Shown here in pieces: positions 7-13,622 of a stretch of DNA of 64,000 nucleotides. The notes under the pieces were generated by a model. The model saw nothing but the letters and a program-made list of their open reading frames with translations, was not told the DNA's origin and made no database searches. The stretch is from the IMG/VR virus record IMGVR_UViG_3300028299_000003, positions 12,632 through 76,631 of that record; one strand, given 5' to 3'. Positions within the stretch are counted from its first letter, which is position 1; the number at the start of each line of letters is the position of its first letter. Made by a program: the position numbers and the translations under genes. Source of the stretch: a virus.

Positions 7-95
7 TAGTCCTAGAGGGATTCGAACCCCCGTTACCAAGAAAACCTTGGCGTCCTTATCCACTTTAAAGTGGAGTTCCGTTAGACGATAGGACC
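7..95 (-). ncRNA. non-canonical tRNA-Glu-like RNA with D-loop hairpin insert and 5-nt anticodon loop
   Basis: GGTCCTA/TAGGACT acceptor, TTCGAAT T-loop, Glu-like D-stem; insert TCCACT-TTAA-AGTGGA after GG; CCAAG-GTTTT-CTTGG anticodon arm. Confidence 0.75.
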
Positions 96-101
96 GTTTT
101 G

Positions 102-188
102 TAGCCCCTGTGGGACTCGAACCTCACATTCCTAGGACAATACCTAGGGTCCTGCACATCGGACGATGATCCGTTAGACGAAAGGGCC
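102..188 (-). ncRNA. non-canonical tRNA-Glu-like RNA with D-loop hairpin insert and 6-nt anticodon loop
   Basis: GGCCCTT/AGGGGCT acceptor, TTCGAGT T-loop, insert CATCG-TC-CGATG, CTAGG-TATTGT-CCTAG arm. Confidence 0.7.
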
Positions 189-288
189 ATTTTATTTTCG
201 ACTTATTTTTTTCAGTATCTCAAAGAACAAAAACAAAGGTACATTGTTTTTTTGACAAAACAAAATTTTTCTTTGTTTTTTTTTTATG

Positions 289-362
289 TCACCCGTAGGG
301 GATTCGAACCCCTGATTTCAAGGATGAAAACCTTGCGTCCTAGACCGACTAGACGAACGGGC
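289..362 (-). tRNA. tRNA-Glu(TTC)
   Basis: Cloverleaf; anticodon arm CAAGG-TTTTCAT-CCTTG. Confidence 0.92.
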
Positions 363-370
363 GTATTTTG

Positions 371-524
371 TAGTCCTAGGGGGATTCGAGCCCCCATGAC
401 CAAGAAAACCTTGGCGTCCTTATCACACAATCTGGATTTGAACCATAATTCCTCTATTCTATTATATAAGAGGGTGTTTCCTTTTGTTACACTATTTGTG
501 TGAGTTCCGTTTAGACGATAGGAC
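371..524 (-). ncRNA. tRNA-Glu-like RNA with a second degenerate tRNA (423-503) nested in its D-loop
   Basis: Outer body nearly identical to 7-95; the 81-nt insert has its own acceptor, D, anticodon and T arms. Confidence 0.7.
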
Positions 525-591
525 CTGAAATCATATATAAGATGATTTCGTATTTTTAATATTTTCAAATTTTCAATGAACGATTACAATA

Positions 592-623
592 CAAAGATAA
601 GAATTATTCTGATACTATACAAA
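592..623 (-). promoter_or_regulatory. Bacteroidota-type promoter for the Glu cluster
   Basis: TTTG (620-623), 20-nt spacer, TATCTTTG (592-599). Confidence 0.7.
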
Positions 624-649: not shown

Positions 650-1545
650 GGAATGAGACTACTTCCACTTCTGACTGATACCTTCATTGTATTATCCCTT
701 TGACTCCCATCAGAGGGTTCTCAATTTGTCCACATCCACCAGGGATGTCTATCAGCGACGCTGCCGTTTTATAGTTGGTGACTCAACTTTTACCATCAAT
801 CATATTCAACTTTCCGAATACCCTCTGCTTTCGGGGCAGTTCGTGGCCGCTAGACCACTAGGTGCATCTTTCAATCAAATTCATCCGTCTTGGGAACTTC
901 AGAACTCTCGGTTCACCCGTAGGTGCTAAGAATTAAGCGACTTTCAGATTGATGTTGAGTGGGCCTTTCCATTTGATAACAAAATGCAGGAATTGAACCT
1001 ACGTTTTTTATTTAAGCGATAAATGCCTTACCACTAGGCAAATTTTGTTAGTCCACCAAGAAGTGCCCACTCAGCTGTTCTATATCCTTTTGAGATATAA
1101 AATTCAACACTTCTCATGCGTTTCGGGCTACCGACCCTACTGTGCGGTTCTTCAAGAATCCTGACCCCTCGTTCTACCAAGGAATCATTCACCTCTGGAA
1201 CTATTAGATAGCCATCACGTTGGTCTGCTTTGACAGTCTAATCACTCCTTATCCAATCAGATGTATCAATCGGCTGACGAATGGCGTTGGGTGTCACCCC
1301 ATATTAGAGAAGCTCCTTACCCATTGCCGTGACAATGGGGGCTTACCTCTCGTATTCTTCCCACAGAACCATAACCGATTTTCCACCTTAGTTCCACCGA
1401 AGTGAAACCCGCCACTGGGATGCGTTAGGATGAAGTTTGCTTGGATGAACTACCCGAAAGTAGCAGGAGATTGTGAACATTTACTCCTCTTTTACACCTT
1501 ACGATGTATTATCCTTTATCCCCCGAAGGGGAAAACTTCCCAAAC
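650..1545 (-). ncRNA. large structured RNA, GOLLD-like (ends approximate)
   Basis: ~900-nt GC-enriched stretch with no credible ORF, many hairpins (TTCG, GAAA, GTAA loops), own promoter, next to tRNAs, contains a tRNA. Confidence 0.65.
978..1048 (-). tRNA. degenerate tRNA embedded in the large RNA (anticodon position CTT, Lys)
   Basis: ACAAAAT/ATTTTGT acceptor, GCCT-AGTGGTA-AGGC D arm, TTTAT-CGCTTAA-ATAAA, GTAGG-TTCAATT-CCTGC; G instead of U33. Confidence 0.7.
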
Positions 1546-1936: not shown

Positions 1937-2024
1937 TGCTCCAGATAGGATTCGAACCTATAAGCCTCATTATGGCGGTGATTCCTGAGACCACTGTGTT
2001 TACCTTGGTTTTCACCACTGGAGC
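1937..2024 (-). tRNA. tRNA-Leu(CAG)
   Basis: GTGGT-CTCAGGA-ATCAC, long variable arm. Confidence 0.9.
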
Positions 2025-2031
2025 TAATTTT

Positions 2032-2244
2032 TTATTTCTTTCTTTCCCTTCTTTCTTTCTTTTCAATTTTTTCAACTTTCTCAACCTTCTCCTTATTTGA
2101 TTCGGATTGTTTTCTCCATTCCTTCCAATCTTTTTTATTTGAGTAAATCCAATCAAAACCCAAAAGTCTTTTGATTTCTTTATAATCATCAATAGATTTA
2201 TCACTTACTCTTTTAAATTCATCGTTTCTTTTTAGTGTTTTCAT
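2032..2244 (-). CDS. hypothetical basic protein
   Basis: ORF co-oriented with neighbours. Confidence 0.5.
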   Translation of the reverse strand: MKTLKRNDEFKRVSDKSIDDYKEIKRLLGFDWIYSNKKDWKEWRKQSESNKEKVEKVEKIEKKERRERKK

Positions 2245-2250
2245 ATTTTT

Positions 2251-2676
2251 TTAATGTTTAATTATTTTTGAAAAATTATAATATATATTATCCTCTAGAA
2301 ATTTTTTTAATTTCTTATCAATATCTTTTTCTAGTTTATTTCTTTTCTTATCTAGTTTTTTAGATTCAGACTTGTTCATAGTCTTTTTTATAATATCCAT
2401 ATCTCTAATTTCACCCGTTTCATCTTGTATTTCTTTTAATTTATTATAAAATTCATAGTATTTATTCTTTTGAAAAAATACAAAAAATACTTCCATTGAG
2501 TATCTTAATCTTCTTACCGATATTCGAATTTCATGTAGTGTATCTTCATTAGGATTTTTTAAATAATCTTCTATATTATTTTTTATAGTCTTTAATCTAA
2601 ATTTTAAAGATTTTTTAGAAAATTCATTAGAGTTTTTTTCATTGTCAATTATCCATTTTTTTAATTTATTCATCAA
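2251..2676 (-). CDS. CHAD domain protein
   Basis: LHEIRISVRRLRY and LKEIQDETGEIRDMD motifs. Confidence 0.8.
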   Translation of the reverse strand: MMNKLKKWIIDNEKNSNEFSKKSLKFRLKTIKNNIEDYLKNPNEDTLHEIRISVRRLRYSMEVFFVFFQKNKYYEFYNKLKEIQDETGEIRDMDIIKKTMNKSESKKLDKKRNKLEKDIDKKLKKFLEDNIYYNFSKIIKH

Positions 2677-2811
2677 TCCATTAGTTTAATTATATCGTTA
2701 CTTTTCTTAAAAATCATATGTATCCCAAATATTCTTATTACAAATCCCTTCATATGTTTGAATTTTCTAAAATAGAAAAACCAAAATCTACTTTTGTAAA
2801 ATTTTATGTAT

Positions 2812-3120
2812 TTAGTGTGTACTATCATATTTTTCTAAACATTCCATTTTGAACCAAGGCCATTTACCCCTTAACATTACCATATACCCATCATATAGAA
2901 TTTTTGTTTTGCGGTGACCATCCATTGTTATTTTATAGGAATGTTCTATTTTTTCAATTTTTCCTGGATTATTATTTGTAGCTGTATATTTTGACCATTT
3001 TCCACAAGAACTATCCCACCAAGAATATTCTTCATTTATCACAACTCTATCACCAATATCAAAAGGAAGTTCATCATATTCCTCCCATTCAAAATCATCA
3101 AAATTAATATTTTCAATCAT
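2812..3120 (-). CDS. hypothetical protein with acidic N-terminus
   Basis: FDDFEWEE acidic leader as in other small ORFs; FDIGDRV. Confidence 0.55.
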   Translation of the reverse strand: MIENINFDDFEWEEYDELPFDIGDRVVINEEYSWWDSSCGKWSKYTATNNNPGKIEKIEHSYKITMDGHRKTKILYDGYMVMLRGKWPWFKMECLEKYDSTH

Positions 3121-3160
3121 TTTTAAATATAATTGATAATTTAATAAATAAGAAATTTTA

Positions 3161-3376
3161 TTACCACCTTACTACTTTATAATTGTGACCCTTACTATTA
3201 ACCATCTTACCTTCTGATTCTAGAATTTTAGTTATACTTTTTATAATAGAATTACTTAGTTCAGCGGTTTCCCAGTAATAATGAAATTCACCTTTTTTCG
3301 CGGATTTCAAAATTTCTCTTTTTAATACTTTCAGTATCTCAGCTTCCTGTCTTACTCTTTCTTCTACTACAGTCAT
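3161..3376 (-). CDS. hypothetical protein
   Basis: ORF track. Confidence 0.55.
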   Translation of the reverse strand: MTVVEERVRQEAEILKVLKREILKSAKKGEFHYYWETAELSNSIIKSITKILESEGKMVNSKGHNYKVVRW

Positions 3377-3453
3377 GGCTTTTTAATTTTTTATAAATTA
3401 ATATAATTGGTTCAAAATACAATTTAATAGATTTAACTATTTCCTTTTTCATT

Positions 3454-3762
3454 CTAATTTTCATTTTCTTTTTTTCCTTTCTTACATATAGGACATACTA
3501 CAACTTGTTGTAAGGTTATGGAATCTATATCTACAATAATATAACCTTTATTATTACAATTTGCACATCTAAATTTGTTATATTTACACATAACAATATT
3601 CATTTCTTCTTTATAACTAGGAATGTGTCTATTATCACATGCTCTGTCACCAATCATACCAAATCCAAAACATTTTTTAACATCATTTTTAGATAGAGTA
3701 CACACTCTACAAATTCCATTAATTCGTTCTTCTTGGGTATGAGGTTTCATTTCATTCATCAA
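3454..3762 (-). CDS. Cys-rich zinc-finger protein
   Basis: Several CxxC pairs. Confidence 0.55.
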   Translation of the reverse strand: MMNEMKPHTQEERINGICRVCTLSKNDVKKCFGFGMIGDRACDNRHIPSYKEEMNIVMCKYNKFRCANCNNKGYIIVDIDSITLQQVVVCPICKKGKKENEN

Positions 3763-4525
3763 TATATTTTTTTAACTTTTCAAATTCATTTTCAACAAAT
3801 TCATTATTCTCTCTACCCATATCCTTTATTACATATGGAATATATCCACAGTTTTTAATTTCTTTTATTTTAATTCTATCTCTATTTTTCACTTGTTTAA
3901 TTGAATGTTTTTCTTTTATTTTTTCATAATGCCATTTTCCATTCCACAATATCGCTATTTTATAATCTTCTATTATTATATCAGCGTCCCATCCATTAAA
4001 AATTGATTCATTAGTTTTAATATTATTAAAATATTCTTTACATAATTCAGAAAAATATATTTCATTTTTACTTCTTCTATTCTGATTTAGAACTGAGGCT
4101 CTACCACCCTTTATTGCTTTATCTATATTATTTTTATTTGAATATGTTATAGAACACTTGTTAGAACAAAAAATTCTATTTTCAGTTATTCTATGCTCAA
4201 ATATTTTATTACAATATTTACAAATTGTACTTATTCTTTTAATATGATTTCTACCAATCAATGACTCACTTTTCTTTTTCTTATCATCATCATCCCAATC
4301 TCTACTATTGGCACAACTTCTAGAACAATAATATTTTTCTTTTTTAGGAAAAAGTTTTTCTCTTTCCTCTATTTCAAATTCCTTTTTACAATTATTACAA
4401 GTAACTATAAATTTTTTGAATTCACCATACTTTTTATTAACATATCCACCTTGGTGTATATTTTGACAAGAAGTATTACAATATTTATTTTTTACAGGTT
4501 TTCCACAATTTAAACATTTATTCAT
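3752..4525 (-). CDS. putative homing endonuclease (Zn fingers plus PD-(D/E)XK/Vsr-like domain)
   Basis: YCSRSC/FCSNKC repeats; WDADII..IAILWNGKWHY..RDRIK. Confidence 0.7.
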   Translation of the reverse strand: MNKCLNCGKPVKNKYCNTSCQNIHQGGYVNKKYGEFKKFIVTCNNCKKEFEIEEREKLFPKKEKYYCSRSCANSRDWDDDDKKKKSESLIGRNHIKRISTICKYCNKIFEHRITENRIFCSNKCSITYSNKNNIDKAIKGGRASVLNQNRRSKNEIYFSELCKEYFNNIKTNESIFNGWDADIIIEDYKIAILWNGKWHYEKIKEKHSIKQVKNRDRIKIKEIKNCGYIPYVIKDMGRENNEFVENEFEKLKKYIDE

Positions 4526-4593
4526 TTTATAATAGTTTTTATTTCTATATATAAAATTATAAAAACGGAAAGTTGTATTGAACCTTTTTATAT

Positions 4594-4665
4594 TGTGCGG
4601 ATGTCAGATTCGAACTGATTCTCAAGATTATGAGTCTCGTATGTTAACCATTACACCACACCGCG
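4594..4665 (-). tRNA. tRNA-Met(CAT), initiator-like
   Basis: CGAGA-CTCATAA-TCTTG; C1:A72 mismatch. Confidence 0.85.
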
Positions 4666-4760
4666 TGTTTTTTACATTAGAATTTTATTAATTTCTAATG
4701 GTATAAATTTAATTGAAAATTAATTAGTTTCCAAAATTTAATTGTTCTTTTTTACATGTG

Positions 4761-5059
4761 CGGCCCGTGTAGGATTCGAACCTACGACCAACAGATTACA
4801 CATTATCCATAATTTTCATTACGGGGTGGACTATATCATCATCTCTACTGAGATGTCGGACGCTATTAAAGGTTTATTGATTGATTTTCTCACCTTTTAG
4901 TCTCTGCACCTTCCCAAATACTCTTATAATCTTCTCTGGGCTTGGATCAGGATTGCCATATTAAAGGTTTCCCTGAGTTCATCCGATTTTCCATATGTGG
5001 TCACCCACATACGCTGCAATCTTTACAGTCTGCTGCTCTACCAGCTGAGCTAACGAGCC
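4761..5059 (-). tRNA. tRNA-Asn(GTT) split by a group I intron
   Basis: Exons 5059-5025 and 4798-4761 join to GCAGA-CTGTTAA-TCTGT. Confidence 0.88.
4799..5024 (-). ncRNA. group I intron (IC3-like), no ORF
   Basis: 5' exon ends in U, intron ends in G; P1 CTGT/GCAG; core AATCCTGATCCAAGC, GCAGAGACT, GATATAGTCC. Confidence 0.9.
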
Positions 5060-5079
5060 ATTATTTCAAAGAACAATTG

Positions 5080-5152
5080 TGACCTTGGCGAGAATCGAAC
5101 TCACATCTAAAATTCCGCAAATTTTTATTCTAATCCGTTGAACTACAAGGCC
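5080..5152 (-). tRNA. tRNA-Arg(GCG)
   Basis: AAAAT-TTGCGGA-ATTTT. Confidence 0.85.
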
Positions 5153-5162
5153 CTGTTTATTG

Positions 5163-5235
5163 TATCCACTCTAGGACTCGAACCCAGACCTAATTATTCG
5201 AAGTAACTAATGCTAATCCGTTACACCAAGTGGAC
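5163..5235 (-). tRNA. tRNA-Arg(TCG)
   Basis: AGTTA-CTTCGAA-TAATT. Confidence 0.88.
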
Positions 5236-5239
5236 ATTG

Positions 5240-5314
5240 CGGTGACGACCAGATTTGAACTGGCGATCTCCTGAGTGACAGTCAGGAATGTTAGGCCATC
5301 TACACCACGTCACC
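5240..5314 (-). tRNA. tRNA-Asp(GTC)
   Basis: CCTGA-CTGTCAC-TCAGG. Confidence 0.92.
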
Positions 5315-5710
5315 TTATTTTAACCATTTTCTTATTGCGTTATCACTTACACCATATTTTCTTCCTGTTCCTTTATATCCAAGTTCTTCAATATCTTTTA
5401 ATAGTGTTTCTTTATCAGGTCTTTCTACTTTTCTTTGTTTTAAATCTGCACATTTTTTACATCTTTTTGATTGTCTATCTTTTTTGTTGCCACATTTACA
5501 ATAATAATTTCCATTATAGAATCCATAATTATTTTTTATATTTTTTGCACCATGTGTGTCTAAAGTTACATTACAATTTGGACAAACAATTCTTAAATTT
5601 TCTAATCTATTATCATCATTTATACCATTAATATGATCCAATACAAATATTAATTTTTTCCCCATCCATTCTTCATCTTGACCACAAATTTCACATTTTT
5701 TTTCTTTCAA
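5315..5710 (-). pseudogene. HNH homing endonuclease, probably N-terminally truncated
   Basis: LDHINGINDDNRLENLRIVCPNC; paralog of 6412-7086 lacking its N-terminal part. Confidence 0.7.
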
Positions 5711-5840
5711 TCCTTCATAGAATTCTTAACAATATTAGTAAAATGATTTTCTTCATATCTATTTTGCATATTCTTTTTTATTTGTATATTAAAATCTGAA
5801 TACCAAAAACTGTCAATTAAATCAAAGAACGTCTTTTTTG

Positions 5841-5917
5841 TTGGGAAGGTGGGATTTGAACCCACATGTGACCAGTTACCGTTTCAACACTTTATAAGAG
5901 TGAGCGGATACATCCCA
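5841..5917 (-). tRNA. rewired tRNA-like RNA, anticodon TAT (Ile)
   Basis: Acceptor and T arm normal; CACT-CTTATAA-AGTG comes before a D-loop-like TAACTGGT. Confidence 0.8.
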
Positions 5918-5961
5918 GTTTTTATATTGTTAGTGTGAGTGGATACGATGAATTGAATTTG

Positions 5962-6038
5962 TCGGATTGGGTGGGGTCGAACCACCATGTAACCAATTAA
6001 CCTTTCAACTGCTTATCAGGCAGAGGGTTTACAATCCG
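5962..6038 (-). tRNA. rewired tRNA-like RNA, anticodon GAT (Ile)
   Basis: Same architecture as 5841-5917 with covarying stems; CTGC-CTGATAA-GCAG. Confidence 0.8.
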
Positions 6039-6044
6039 TTTTGT

Positions 6045-6080
6045 TAGAGAATCACTCTAACCAATTGAGCTACACACCCG
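6045..6080 (-). pseudogene. 5' half of a canonical tRNA
   Basis: GGGTGTGTAGCTCAATTGGTTAGAGTG acceptor strand plus D arm, no contiguous 3' half. Confidence 0.65.
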
Positions 6081-6084
6081 TTTG

Positions 6085-6167
6085 TGACCGAAGTGGGAAT
6101 CGAACCCACATGAGCTTAGCTCAAAGGTTTTTAAGACCTTCGCGTCTGCCAGTTCCGCCATTCAGCC
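6085..6167 (-). tRNA. tRNA-Leu(TAA)
   Basis: AAGGT-CTTAAAA-ACCTT, long variable arm. Confidence 0.92.
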
Positions 6168-6249
6168 AATTTTATTTCAATACGTCAAAGAACCATTTTA
6201 CAAATTTACAAAATTATTTCCACATTTCCAACTTTTCAACAAATTTTTG

Positions 6250-6326
6250 CGGTCCCAAAGGGATTCGAACCCTTCTGTTATTCCTCCGTGACAGGGAGGT
6301 AGCCACACCCAGCAACTCCTGAGACC
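6250..6326 (-). tRNA. tRNA-Asp(GTC), atypical D arm
   Basis: CCTCC-CTGTCAC-GGAGG; G at position 8. Confidence 0.8.
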
Positions 6327-6338
6327 AATCAATTTTTG

Positions 6339-6421
6339 TGACCAAGGTGGGACTCGAACCCACAAGTTCTGTGAACGATAGGTTCTAAACCTATTATGTT
6401 TTCCAATTTCATCACTTGGCC
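6339..6421 (-). tRNA. tRNA-Leu(TAG)
   Basis: ATAGG-TTTAGAA-CCTAT. Confidence 0.9.
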
Positions 6422-7086
6422 TTCTCGTAATTTTTTTTCCATTTTCTTATACTATTATCACTCACTCCGTATTTTCTTCCTGTTCCTCTATATCCAAATT
6501 CTTTTATTTCTTTTAATAATTTATCATAAGATGGTCTTTTTACTTTTCTTTGTTTTAATTTTGAACAATCCATACAATATTTACTATTTTCTTGTTTTTT
6601 ATTTCCACACTCACATTTCTGTTGTGGATTTTTATTTATTTTTGATTTTTGATTTAAACTCTTACAATATGTATTTGTTTGAGCGTGACAATTTGGACAA
6701 AGTATTTGAATATTATTAAATTCATTATTAAATCTATTGCCATCTATATGATGAATTTCTAATGGTGCATCTTTATTATTCCATTCGGTAAGATTACAAA
6801 TTTCACATTTTTTTTCTTTATATCCATCCATTATTAATTTTTTTCTCAGTGTGTTGCTACTTATTAATGACCCGTTAAATAAATATTTAGAAACATGTTT
6901 TCTATTATTTGATATTTTTTTACCCTTTAATCCCATATTGCCATTATATTCAATATTCATTTTTTTCAAATATCCATTTAATGTTGATTGTCTACATATA
7001 AGTTCTTTACAAATGAAAGATTTTGGTTGATTATCATTTATCCATTCTAATATCTCTTCTTTTTTTTCTAATATATCTTTTCTCAT
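6412..7086 (-). CDS. HNH homing endonuclease (likely start MRKDILE)
   Basis: LEIHHIDGNRFNNEFNNIQILCPNCH; C-terminal HTH-like GRKYGVSDNSIRKW. Confidence 0.85.
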   Translation of the reverse strand: MRKDILEKKEEILEWINDNQPKSFICKELICRQSTLNGYLKKMNIEYNGNMGLKGKKISNNRKHVSKYLFNGSLISSNTLRKKLIMDGYKEKKCEICNLTEWNNKDAPLEIHHIDGNRFNNEFNNIQILCPNCHAQTNTYCKSLNQKSKINKNPQQKCECGNKKQENSKYCMDCSKLKQRKVKRPSYDKLLKEIKEFGYRGTGRKYGVSDNSIRKWKKNYEKAK

Positions 7087-7190
7087 CTTTTTTTTTATTT
7101 TATATATTAAAAATAAAAAGTCAAAAATGGTAAACACCATAATTATTTTTATAATATGTATATTATTTTAATTATTTCAAAGAACTTATG

Positions 7191-9654: not shown

Positions 9655-9914
9655 TAATAAATCAAATCAGTGAGCCTATAATCTTCTATTTCACCACGTT
9701 CGTTTTCACATTTAGCTCTTCGTTTACCATTTTTATCGGTATAAATTTCACGAATTGTTACTCTGTAGAAAGTCGTCTCATTATCTGTAAATATTCTACA
9801 TCTACTTCCAATTTTTAATTCATTAACCAATCTTCTAATAGTGATTTTATCACTTATTACTAAAATTGAAATTATAATTAAAAGACAAATTAAAATTACT
9901 AAAAATATTATCAT
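9654..9914 (-). CDS. small membrane-anchored protein
   Basis: N-terminal hydrophobic helix. Confidence 0.55.
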   Translation of the reverse strand: MIIFLVILICLLIIISILVISDKITIRRLVNELKIGSRCRIFTDNETTFYRVTIREIYTDKNGKRRAKCENERGEIEDYRLTDLIY

Positions 9915-10834
9915 AATTTACGGTTTTTAATTTCTTTATCCATTTCTTTTTTTACTTTATATACTAAAGAGTGGCTAAACCCAGTAGTTTTTATTATATC
10001 CTTAACATTTTTATCATTTATAAATAATTTATGAATTATTGAATATTTATCTGATTTCATAATTCTATTATCTATTATTCTATCCCATTTTCTATTCATT
10101 ATTGGAAGATTGAGAGATTTTGCTTTATTTTTTATTTTTTCTAATGTTTTAAATTTAAATATTCTAATCGTAGAACAACCACCTGTTGATAATTTAAAAC
10201 ATTTTTCTTCATCTGTCAAAATTTTATAGAATTCTTCTAATATTTTTTTCCAATTTTTATCACACTTAATTTCTATAGATTTACCATTTTTACATATAGA
10301 CCCATCTCCATCAATGAAACCTATAATTAAACTAAATATTTGATCTTTTCCTAGATTTGGAATTGTTGGAATATTTTTTGTTTTATTGGTTTTCCAATTA
10401 AATATTTCTTTTAATTCTATTACTGTTTGTTTATCACATAATGTATATCTAACAGAATTTAATTTATCAACATAAGATGGTTTTAAATTTATACCCAAGT
10501 GCTTTTCTATTTTATTAAAATGTTCTTCATCTTTTTTACTTATATTTACTTGAAAATAACAATTCTTAGATAGATGACCATCAGCAAGTAAAAAACCAAT
10601 CCAATAACAAGTAATATTATCATTTAAATTTAATAGTTTTATTAAATTTCTTTTACTCTCATAAAATTCTCTTTTTATTCCAAAAAGATGTGCCATTTTT
10701 TGTATATAATTCCAAGATAAATTTAAATCGTTTTTTATATCTTTATTGCTTTTTTTAGAATAATTTTCTAACAAATACTCTTTTAAATATTCATTTCTTT
10801 CTGTGTTTAAATTTCTTATTTTATAATTAGTCAT
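9911..10834 (-). CDS. LAGLIDADG homing endonuclease
   Basis: YWIGFLLADG and LIIGFIDGDG. Confidence 0.88.
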   Translation of the reverse strand: MTNYKIRNLNTERNEYLKEYLLENYSKKSNKDIKNDLNLSWNYIQKMAHLFGIKREFYESKRNLIKLLNLNDNITCYWIGFLLADGHLSKNCYFQVNISKKDEEHFNKIEKHLGINLKPSYVDKLNSVRYTLCDKQTVIELKEIFNWKTNKTKNIPTIPNLGKDQIFSLIIGFIDGDGSICKNGKSIEIKCDKNWKKILEEFYKILTDEEKCFKLSTGGCSTIRIFKFKTLEKIKNKAKSLNLPIMNRKWDRIIDNRIMKSDKYSIIHKLFINDKNVKDIIKTTGFSHSLVYKVKKEMDKEIKNRKL

Positions 10835-11967: not shown

Positions 11968-12038
11968 TTTTTTTTAAAATAAAAAATATTTCAAGGGTGT
12001 ATCAATTTTTATATATAGGATAAAATAAACCCACGGAA

Positions 12039-13622
12039 ATGAGCATTTTAAAACTAAATACATATAATTTCAATGAATTAGATTGGCCAAGAGATGGTAG
12101 GTTTCTACTTGGTTTTAGTGGAACAACAATAGCTGATACAGAATTAGCTTATATGGACCCAAATGGTAAGGTAACTATAGTAAGAGGTGCTGGTGGTGGA
12201 TCAAGTACTTCAGGTACATCAGGAACTTCAGGAACTTCAGGTACAGATGGAACCTCAGGAACCTCAGGCACAGATGGAACATCAGGCACTTCAGGCACAG
12301 ATGGAACATCAGGAACAGATGGTGCTGATGGGAGTGGTAGTTCAGGAACTTCAGGCACAGATGGTACTGATGGTAGTGGTAGTTCAGGAACTTCAGGCAC
12401 AGATGGAGTTGATGGAAATGGTAGTTCAGGAACAGATGGAACATCAGGCACTTCAGGCACAGATGGCACTTCAGGTAGATGGGGAACTTTAATTTTAAAT
12501 GGTGACGGTTATGGAACAACAGATTGGATAAATCCAACTAATGGACTTGCTGATCAATGGTCAATTGGTGGTGGATGGATTAGATCTATATGGAATAATG
12601 TTAGTGGATTTACAGATAATGCTCAGTTTTTTACACCAGATGGTGATTGGAGTGGAAATGGTATTGAAGAGGCGTCTTATATATTAGAGACTGGTCAACA
12701 ATATACATTTTCTATGAAATATAGTAGTAACAGAGAAATACACGTTTTTGATAGTAATATAGTTAATAGCTATTTTAAATTCCCATCAAATGATGGACCA
12801 GCGGTATTTGTCTCTGGATTAACAACCGCGTTAGCGGATGATTATTTGTCTTTTGGATGGTCTGGTGATACAAGTATTCAGTTTGGTGATTGGTGGGTGA
12901 TAGATGAGGTTAATTTGTATATTGGTGATATAGGATTACCTAGTGATGGTAGTTCAGGAACATCTGGTACTGATGGTGTTGGTGGAGCTGATGGGTGGGT
13001 ATATTATGGTATAGGATACACTGGATCAACATCTGGATTTACATTAACACACACAACCGATACAACAACAATGAAAATCGGTAGACCAATAAGATACTTT
13101 ATACCAAATGAAATGACATATTATGGTATTATTGTTTCAAGAGTTGATGGTGGAACCTATGATAATTTTGGGATTGAGGGAGCCCCCCTACCAACTGGTA
13201 CATCTATGAATGTTTATTATGGTCCGATGAGTTATGTTGACAATAAATATTTTCTAATAAATGGTGATTACGCGGATTCTGATGATACTACGTTATTAAC
13301 CAATGATTTATTGATGCCTAATGGATATTACTGGAATCAAGGAACCGCGTATTTGGTTAGACAACGATGTGTCGCGTCTAGTATAGGTAGTGGTTCAGCT
13401 CCGAGTATATCACCAACTATACGTGGAAATGAGGTATTACAGACAAAGGATGACATATCGGTTAGTTTAGTAACATCTGGTGTTGATATAAATCCATCAA
13501 ATTATAAATTAACAGATCAAGATAATATTGATTTTTCAATTAGAACAGCTGGTGTATCTGGAACCCCAAGAGACTTGGCATTATATATAACAACAATCTT
13601 GGGTGATAATCATACTTTATAA
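12039..13622 (+). CDS. virion fibre-like protein with Gly/Ser/Thr/Asp triplet repeats and beta-rich domains
   Basis: (SGT)(DGT) collagen-like repeats; aromatic-rich beta domain. Confidence 0.65.
   Translation: MSILKLNTYNFNELDWPRDGRFLLGFSGTTIADTELAYMDPNGKVTIVRGAGGGSSTSGTSGTSGTSGTDGTSGTSGTDGTSGTSGTDGTSGTDGADGSGSSGTSGTDGTDGSGSSGTSGTDGVDGNGSSGTDGTSGTSGTDGTSGRWGTLILNGDGYGTTDWINPTNGLADQWSIGGGWIRSIWNNVSGFTDNAQFFTPDGDWSGNGIEEASYILETGQQYTFSMKYSSNREIHVFDSNIVNSYFKFPSNDGPAVFVSGLTTALADDYLSFGWSGDTSIQFGDWWVIDEVNLYIGDIGLPSDGSSGTSGTDGVGGADGWVYYGIGYTGSTSGFTLTHTTDTTTMKIGRPIRYFIPNEMTYYGIIVSRVDGGTYDNFGIEGAPLPTGTSMNVYYGPMSYVDNKYFLINGDYADSDDTTLLTNDLLMPNGYYWNQGTAYLVRQRCVASSIGSGSAPSISPTIRGNEVLQTKDDISVSLVTSGVDINPSNYKLTDQDNIDFSIRTAGVSGTPRDLALYITTILGDNHTL
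12206..12476 (+). repeat. coding tandem repeat (9-nt units, SGTSGTDGT)
   Basis: tcaggaact/tcaggcaca/gatggaaca arrays. Confidence 0.9.

Follow-up and report, generated by a model that had tools for sequence, protein, structure and literature searches.

Introduction

The linkers of GOLLD RNAs (Rfam RF02032) embed tRNA modules (Kretsch et al., 10.1101/2024.12.08.627333; PMC6582537). In Lak megaphages, a tRNA intron located in the anticodon loop may itself encode a tRNA (2019, PMC6784885), and a tRNA-like module is also part of YrlA, a bacterial Y RNA (Rfam RF02553; Chen et al. 2014, PMC4201824). Here we describe an RNA from a phage tRNA island, called B, in which an 81-nt tRNA-shaped cloverleaf is inserted into the D-loop of a gene that is itself derived from tRNA-Glu.

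The insert in B shares with the GOLLD-linker modules a tRNA-shaped cloverleaf, an acceptor end that is closed by a helix of the host RNA, and a location in phage tRNA islands. It differs from them in that the host RNA appears to be a tRNA mimic itself, with the D-loop as the graft site. The Lak insert, like that of B, is tRNA-shaped, lies in a tRNA-type gene of a large phage and has relatives with and without the insert; however, it interrupts the anticodon loop of a decoding tRNA, whereas the insert of B is found in the D-loop of an apparently non-decoding mimic whose relatives carry simple hairpins at this site. YrlA and B are both non-coding RNAs that contain a tRNA-like module whose acceptor end is closed, and RNAs of either type are found in phages. 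The module of YrlA joins the rest of the RNA via a position in the anticodon stem, whereas the inner module of B joins via the D-loop, and the YrlA model RF02553 gave no match on the B region. In archaea, tRNA introns occur at non-canonical positions including the D-loop, and such D-loop introns, like the insert of B, interrupt the D-loop of a tRNA-type gene. These introns depend on a bulge-helix-bulge motif and on a splicing endonuclease, neither of which is, to our knowledge, expected in a bacteriophage, and no bulge-helix-bulge motif was seen by eye at B. We found no paper on D-loop arms in phage tRNA-Glu genes or on a tRNA nested in a D-loop, which is not proof of absence, and the family of mimic RNAs with an extra arm that we describe below is apparently undescribed.

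Results

The tRNA island of a large phage

The window, by which we mean the whole stretch of 64,000 nucleotides that was analysed, comprises bases 12632-76631 of a 76.6-kb IMG/VR virus record. CheckV estimated the completeness of the record at 11%, indicating that it is a fragment of a very large phage. The DNA and RNA runs that contain this stretch originate from lake water. Among the proteins of the record are tail-fibre-like and SbcC-like proteins, and there are many homing-endonuclease genes. The first 8 kb of the window form a tRNA island on the minus strand, with 13 tRNAs called by ARAGORN, several non-canonical tRNAs, a group I intron and a GOLLD RNA. Open reading frames resembling HNH and LAGLIDADG homing endonucleases, together with one encoding a CHAD domain, are scattered between the tRNA genes (2251-7140 and 9911-10834).

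Several genes of the island depart from the usual tRNA plan. The group I intron (4807-5035; 96 bits with the Rfam model) splits a tRNA at 4760-5059 on the minus strand, which ARAGORN in its intron mode reads as tRNA-Asn(GUU). Two odd tRNA-Ile-like genes at 5841-6079 on the minus strand have their D-loop motif 3' of the anticodon arm, and one of them is nested in the remains of a canonical tRNA, the 5' half of which ends at U33 while its 3' end resumes past the insert. An 88-nt tRNA-like gene (1937-2024, minus strand) scored 47 bits with Rfam and was missed by ARAGORN at default settings; relaxed settings returned it with a four-base anticodon (caca).

Genes for processing or binding of such RNAs were sought with protein profiles in the 76.6-kb record, which represents about 11% of the genome. 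No match was obtained for RNA ligase (PF09414 and PF09511, the control for the latter matching nowhere), RtcB (PF01139), TROVE/Ro60 (PF05731) or the CCA-adding enzyme (PF01743). Since the record is a small fragment, the absence of ligase, Ro60 and CCA-enzyme genes is uninformative.

A GOLLD RNA with an embedded tRNA-shaped module

The core of a GOLLD RNA is located upstream of the array that contains B, at 650..1115 on the minus strand. It scored 147.4 bits with the Rfam GOLLD model (E value 4e-40), narrowly missing the gathering score of 150, and the GOLLD RNAs of related phages scored 169-173 bits. The z-score of its fold was -4.3. A closed-end module resembling tRNA-Lys(CUU) lies within the GOLLD linker (977-1049, minus strand), where it is held in a 9-bp helix. 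In contigs assembled from lake-water metatranscriptomes, GOLLD reached a depth of 2000-5000, and the RNA contigs run from position 698 to beyond 1300. The same RNA runs contained a second GOLLD variant, in which a diverged segment of equal length lies exactly over the tRNA-Lys-like module (982-1051). As the GOLLD module and the arm of the mimics described below are both replaced between variants, the embedded tRNA-shaped modules seem to be exchangeable in both host RNAs. Complementarity between the loops of the B insert and GOLLD extended over at most 8 nt, which is unremarkable.

The outer RNA is derived from tRNA-Glu

We defined the outer RNA by its fold and by alignment with its copy A and with the phage's own tRNA-Glu. 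It is a 155-nt RNA encoded at 371..525 on the minus strand. A gene had been placed at 371-524 by the original prediction; it is indeed there, but its start was one base off, since G1 corresponds to position 525 and the RNA therefore runs from 525 to 371. The RNA has a 7-bp acceptor stem with a G1.U72 pair and A73. Its D stem is of the Glu type (GUCU/GGAC, with U11-A24 and U13.G22), the variable region measures 4 nt, and the loop of the T arm reads CUCGAAU. The anticodon arm is replaced by a 5-bp stem, CCAAG/CUUGG, closed by the 5-nt loop GUUUU. This stem is invariant in the family, where the loops of relatives read GUUAU, GCUAU or GUUU. Outside the insert, B is about 92% identical to its paralog A, as counted from the alignment.

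In an alignment of nine A-type genes, 99.5% of the cells in the four outer stems are paired. Compensatory changes on both sides were seen at two pairs of the T stem, and pair 6:67 occurs in three states. Every position that is invariant in the family is kept in the outer body of B. Position 54 of its T-loop is C instead of U, and B may therefore be decaying. Judged from its sequence, B is a non-decoding mimic of tRNA-Glu, the short anticodon loop making decoding impossible.

An 8-bp leader hairpin, read from the sequence, is found directly upstream of B (527..549, minus strand), and in relatives a leader hairpin capped by UUCG precedes the second mimic of the type of B (the A2 gene). Further upstream, at 583..599 on the minus strand, is the promoter-like motif TATCTTTGTATTGTAAT, which recurs in conserved form ahead of the mimic array of relatives and probably acts as a promoter. 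A weaker promoter-like site was noted at 530-559 on the minus strand (TTAAAA, an 18-nt spacer and TATGAT; 9/12), from which the start would be at about the first base of B; if this site were used, the mature 5' end of B might not need RNase P. We also considered a group I or other self-splicing intron in this region and rejected it, as no family of intron covariance models matched 371-530 at E values up to 10.

The insert folds as a closed-end cloverleaf

The insert occupies 423..503 on the minus strand, between the D-loop residues GGAAC and UAA of B, and was delineated using RNAfold, ARAGORN at relaxed settings and the Rfam tRNA model. The sequence quoted for 503-423 in the original prediction is present as stated, and the tRNA-shaped cloverleaf that it had proposed to be nested in the D-loop of a tRNA-like gene was recovered by folding. 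The nested double cloverleaf is both the minimum-energy and the centroid structure obtained with RNAfold, and the four inner helices have mean pair probabilities of 0.90-0.95 in the ensemble. The energy z-scores were modest (-2.1 and -2.2).

In place of an acceptor stem the insert has an 8-bp closing helix, whose 5' strand (496..503, minus strand) pairs with its 3' strand (423..430, minus strand) with a mean pair probability of 0.91. The inner D-like arm (474..492, minus strand; pair probability 0.95) consists of a 4-bp stem, GUGU/ACAC, and an 11-nt loop containing GG, and the anticodon-like arm (451..473, minus strand; pair probability 0.95) consists of a 5-bp stem, CCUCU/AGAGG, and an AU-rich loop of 13 nt. 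This loop exceeds the size compatible with decoding, and the canonical 7-nt anticodon loop with U33 is absent. The T-like arm (431..447, minus strand) has the loop UUCAAAU, which fits the T-loop consensus, on the stem UAUGG/CCAGA, which contains one A.G mismatch and in which 3 of the 5 bp are predicted to be paired. Residue 26 is missing, and the variable region, or spacer, is 3 nt long. Both ends of the insert join the outer D-loop directly, leaving no free acceptor end, discriminator base or NCCA.

ARAGORN did not call the insert at its default threshold or at 95% of it. The insert was called at 92% or lower, and at 92% random sequence of matching composition yielded 4-13 calls per 3 Mb, or about 1-4 per Mb. 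The Rfam tRNA model (RF00005) aligned to the insert over its full length (positions 1-71) with 15.7 bits against a gathering score of 29; the E value was 0.38 over 4227 families, which amounts to about 1e-4 for the tRNA model alone. The module in the GOLLD linker, in comparison, scored 55.8 bits, which befits a good tRNA. The likeness of the insert to tRNA is thus beyond chance, at about 1e-4 to 1e-5, yet under the thresholds of gene finders, and the insert is tRNA-shaped but not a tRNA gene. The original prediction had spoken of a tRNA. The four-helix shape, the GG of the D-loop and the T-loop consensus bear this out in part, but neither Rfam nor ARAGORN at default thresholds agreed, and the 13-nt loop, the lack of a free 3' end and the lack of a parent tRNA in the record contradict it further.

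We searched for a parent of the insert in several ways. Queried with BLAST against the record and all retrieved loci, the insert matched generic T-loop words only, and global alignment with the 25 tRNA or tRNA-like genes of the record gave z-scores of at most 4.1, equal to the 90th percentile of the background. An 18-mer from the inner T arm had six matches in IMG/VR, all of them within protein-coding repeats. With no parent tRNA in the record or in IMG/VR, any insertion would not be recent.

Contigs from the Logan collection, not raw reads, were mapped over positions 1-1300 for two lake-water metatranscriptomes and two DNA runs. In these four runs, 1-245 was covered at a depth of 3-6, there was no coverage of 353-455 or of the 3' junction of the insert, and none of the RNA contigs spanned the insert. 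The 5' junction of the insert was found without mismatch in contigs of two further lake-water DNA runs (records 455-617 and 491-947). A sigma-70-like promoter match is present inside the insert (461-490, minus strand; GTAACA, an 18-nt spacer and TATAAT; 10/12), where it uses the D-like loop and the 13-nt loop, and it could drive a transcript into the outer 3' half and tRNA-Glu. Since the region is AT-rich, with 8 promoter-like sites against 2.4 expected, this match may be due to chance.

An array of tRNA-Glu mimics

This phage has at least five derivatives of tRNA-Glu, of which B, C and A are in the window, and E and D are in the record upstream of the window. The gene following B is a bona fide tRNA-Glu(UUC) (288..363, minus strand), called by ARAGORN and scoring 59.8 bits with the Rfam tRNA model. 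Mimic C (102..190, minus strand), identified from the sequence and by relaxed ARAGORN, has a 5-bp hairpin in its D-loop and a 6-nt loop at the anticodon position, and has orthologs in the contigs L068, L073 and L075. Mimic A, the paralog of B (7..95, minus strand), carries a 17-nt hairpin arm. In mimic E (12592..12494 of the record, L004; minus strand), the acceptor helix is extended to about 9-12 bp, and hairpins replace the anticodon and the variable region. Mimic D (12473..12405 of the record, L004; minus strand) is devoid of a D-loop arm, has the 4-nt loop GGUU, and is followed by a terminator-like hairpin identified by eye. In all five, a Glu-type D stem and a T arm are retained and the anticodon loop is cut to 4-6 nt. 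The tRNA-Glu mimic family is an operational definition and is absent from Rfam.

The same array was found by pattern scans in three related lineages, represented by L005, L068 and L078 (near-identical contigs), by L073 and L077 (99% identical over 7.7 kb) and by L075. The pattern used on the metagenome collection allowed inserts of 8-38 nt after AACGGR, such that genes like B would be missed there unless a matching neighbour gene recruited them. The common order is GOLLD, TATCTTTGTATTGTAAT, A1, sometimes E1, tRNA-Glu, TATCTTTGTATTGTAAT, C, A2, E2, D, and then tRNA-Met or a terminator, and the order of GOLLD and tRNA-Glu is the same in L068, L073 and L077. B fills the A1 slot, the first of this conserved array. 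Near the array, an indel of about 730 bp also separates L073 from L077. Over 1.4 kb of aligned sequence they show one base substitution in the A1 gene, which changes a G.U pair of the T stem to G-C, so that the helix is kept. L077 contains, in addition, a tRNA gene at 12007-12135 on the minus strand whose anticodon region is interrupted by about 55 nt of AT-rich sequence.

Other probes recovered little. A pattern scan with an exact 20-mer from the anticodon arm gave no match, a 16-mer gave one real relative among 11 matches, and a scan of GTDB genomes gave three matches as a raw count. An 18-mer from the 5' half of B was discarded as a means of finding relatives, as its matches were ordinary phage tRNA-Glu genes. 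A distant search of the 'phages' collection returned tRNA-Glu as the sole match, in a 735-kb uncultured phage.

The D-loop arm varies on a conserved base

We compared the D-loops of B, A and the A-type genes of the related lineages. No arm is present in L068-A1 and L075-A2, which have D-loops of 11 and 9 nt, respectively. Hairpin arms of 14 nt are found in L073-A1 and L077-A1, and L073-A2 has one of 15 nt. The 17-nt arm of A forms a hairpin of 6-7 bp at the same D-loop site as the insert, in agreement with the 6-bp hairpin originally noted in the copy at 95..7. Longer hairpin arms with internal loops occur in L077-A2 (37 nt) and L068-A2 (39 nt), and B carries the largest arm, the 81-nt cloverleaf. 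The insertion point of B is identical to that of A, L068-A2, L073-A1, L073-A2, L077-A1 and L077-A2, and every arm starts with UC and ends with GA; the first two pairs of the closing helix, U-A and C-G, are thus common to all arms of the family. Because the arms share their site and the UC and GA ends, the 8-bp 'acceptor' stem of B is best regarded as a lengthened family helix and not as the end of a foreign gene.

The original prediction had called for relatives with an intact inner anticodon, and had named a lack of homologs with a tRNA-like insert, along with failure of probing to detect the inner cloverleaf, as observations that would speak against it. None of eight related genes, with arms of 0, 14, 15, 17, 37 or 39 nt, carries a cloverleaf arm or an intact inner anticodon, and this counts in part against the prediction. 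As the cloverleaf arm is known from one sequence, its inner helices are without covariation support.

The lineage represented by L073 and L077 shows how the arm can change. In the 1.4 kb around the array, these contigs have a single large difference: where L073 has the 15-nt arm, L077 has the 37-nt arm, with a clean exchange of one for the other. The 37-nt arm of L077-A2 has the 10-mer ATTATGGTTC in common with the T-like arm of B, and the 39-nt arm of L068-A2 contains CTCTTATA and TATGG in the same order as the insert of B. The interior similarity to B has a p value of about 0.01 for each of the two arms, a thin indication which suggests that the long arms of B, L077-A2 and L068-A2 are related to one another; possibly, and on equally thin grounds, the 37-nt and 39-nt arms are deletion derivatives of an insert like that of B. 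Across these genes, the arm behaves as a cassette that can be exchanged while its base is conserved.

Hairpins at this D-loop position recur widely among unrelated phage contigs, even in tRNA-Glu genes whose CUC or UUC anticodon loop is intact. Metagenome loci with tRNA-Glu-type genes of this kind include L054, L056, L057, L079, L065, L076, L067-L071, L050, L060 and others, and several of these genes have the 6-nt loop CUUUCA. This fifth arm is much commoner across phage contigs than the mimics linked to GOLLD. We also scanned IMG/VR for D-loop inserts of 39-100 nt. Two real long hairpins were found (L083 and L084; inserts of about 45 and 64 nt), two further matches were discarded as tandem tRNAs, and none of the matches was a tRNA-shaped D-loop insert.

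Discussion

In the reading that we favour, with about even confidence, the mimic bears the insert permanently on its elbow, as a tRNA-shaped domain with a closed end. At the tRNA elbow, D-loop positions 20-20b are variable and face the solvent, and a helix placed there can therefore project without breaking the L-shape. Members of the family retain the acceptor stem, a D stem of the Glu type and the T arm, with the anticodon loop shut to 4-6 nt, and most of them hold an extra helix in the variable part of the D-loop, after G18-G19-A-A. In B this helix has grown to 81 nt with the shape and signature of a tRNA body, namely the GG of the D-loop, the T-loop UUCAAAU and stems of 4, 5 and 5 bp. With the acceptor end of the arm sealed by its helix, a single RNA would present two tRNA-like elbows, and the tRNA-Lys-like module held in the 9-bp helix of the GOLLD linker would be an instance of the same design. 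Factors that recognise the elbow of tRNA, or the GOLLD cage, could find in such a two-headed mimic of tRNA a decoy or a docking piece. From their sequences, the mimics keep the features that are read by RNase P, by CCA addition and by elbow-binding factors, and are without those read by the ribosome and GluRS; they may serve as decoys or docking pieces. We infer that the B RNA is produced, remains uncut and functions as a mimic with two heads. In other members of the family the arm is permanent, because arms of 14-17 nt offer tRNA-processing enzymes no tRNA-like body. Points that count against a permanent domain in B are that there is one example only, that the cloverleaf itself shows no sign of selection, that C54 in the T-loop of B may signal decay, and that the energy z-scores reach no further than about -2. 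The arm swap between the 99%-identical L073 and L077, moreover, fits a dispensable region as well.

This last point is also what a relic would look like. The cloverleaf may have lost any function, tRNA-derived DNA having recombined into a hypervariable arm and being now in decay, such that the arm, and perhaps B, is dispensable; we regard this as possible and as less probable than a permanent domain. The arm is different in every relative and is cleanly swapped between nearly identical contigs, collinear pieces of the insert recur in the arms of L068-A2 and L077-A2 (p about 0.01 each), as they would in deletion derivatives of a larger insert, and the array is interspersed with HNH and LAGLIDADG genes. 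The departures from the tRNA norm (the 13-nt loop, the missing residue 26, the 3-nt variable region and the mismatch in the T stem), together with C54 in the outer T-loop, are also in keeping with decay. However, all eight helices of the double cloverleaf are intact, the elbow signature of GG and UUCAAAU is unbroken, the outer body keeps all family-invariant positions, and the lack of a parent tRNA in the record or IMG/VR means that any insertion is not recent. Far less probable than either is that an AT-rich expansion folds in this way by chance, with neither tRNA ancestry nor a selected tRNA shape. Although the z-scores of about -2.1 to -2.2, the single sequence with no covariation and the scores below gene-finder thresholds are compatible with it, the ARAGORN background of about 1-4 calls per Mb and the value of about 1e-4 for the Rfam tRNA model alone are not what chance would readily produce, and the match to tRNA extends to stem lengths and both elbow motifs together.

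A cloverleaf in this position could also be a substrate for processing, which we consider rather unlikely; the original prediction had put forward cleavage of this kind and, as an alternative, a bivalent decoy. The insert would fold first during transcription and resemble a pre-tRNA, RNase P would cut at its 5' end and the 3' tRNase at its 3' end, and the outcome would be either a split mimic whose acceptor and D stems keep its parts together or, if the ends left behind (3'-OH and 5'-phosphate) were joined by an RNA ligase, a mimic with a normal 12-nt D-loop from which a tRNA-shaped intron has been removed. Features that RNase P could read are present, namely the stack of 8 and 5 bp formed by the acceptor-like and T-like stems, the elbow signature and single-stranded flanks. 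Insert-free alleles exist in the genes L068-A1 and L075-A2 of relatives, and other tRNA genes of the array and of relatives also contain inserts. The tRNA intron of Lak megaphages that may itself encode a tRNA (PMC6784885) provides a precedent, but one that sits in the anticodon loop and not in the D-loop. Against excision, the UC and GA helix base is also found on short hairpins that have no tRNA-like body for tRNA enzymes to act upon, and the inner cloverleaf has a U-A pair at +1, C at -1, an A.G mismatch in the T stem and no NCCA. Such a +1/-1 context, a T-stem mismatch and a missing NCCA make a poor substrate for bacterial RNase P. More speculatively still, and in our estimate improbable, the tRNA elbow and the GOLLD linker might both be display sites for closed-end tRNA-shaped modules that are swapped between strains, with B being either a two-headed mimic that bridges two tRNA-binding partners, for instance through docking on or in the GOLLD nanocage, or a substrate cut by host RNase P and 3' tRNase, which would then be the first tRNA-shaped 'intron' of a D-loop.

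GOLLD RNAs form large cages and are located in phage tRNA islands, and the adjacent tRNA-Glu mimics are among the few clues to the function of these cages. B shows that elaboration of the extra arm can reach a complete second tRNA-shaped body, for which it is so far unique. If the arm is a relic, B would be a case in which, within tRNA arrays that abound in homing endonucleases, tRNA-derived DNA recombined into genes for structured RNAs. If it is functional, the activity of the mimics would lie in recognition of tRNA shape and not of codons, and B would provide a natural two-elbow RNA for tests with RNase P, tRNA-modifying enzymes or GOLLD binding.
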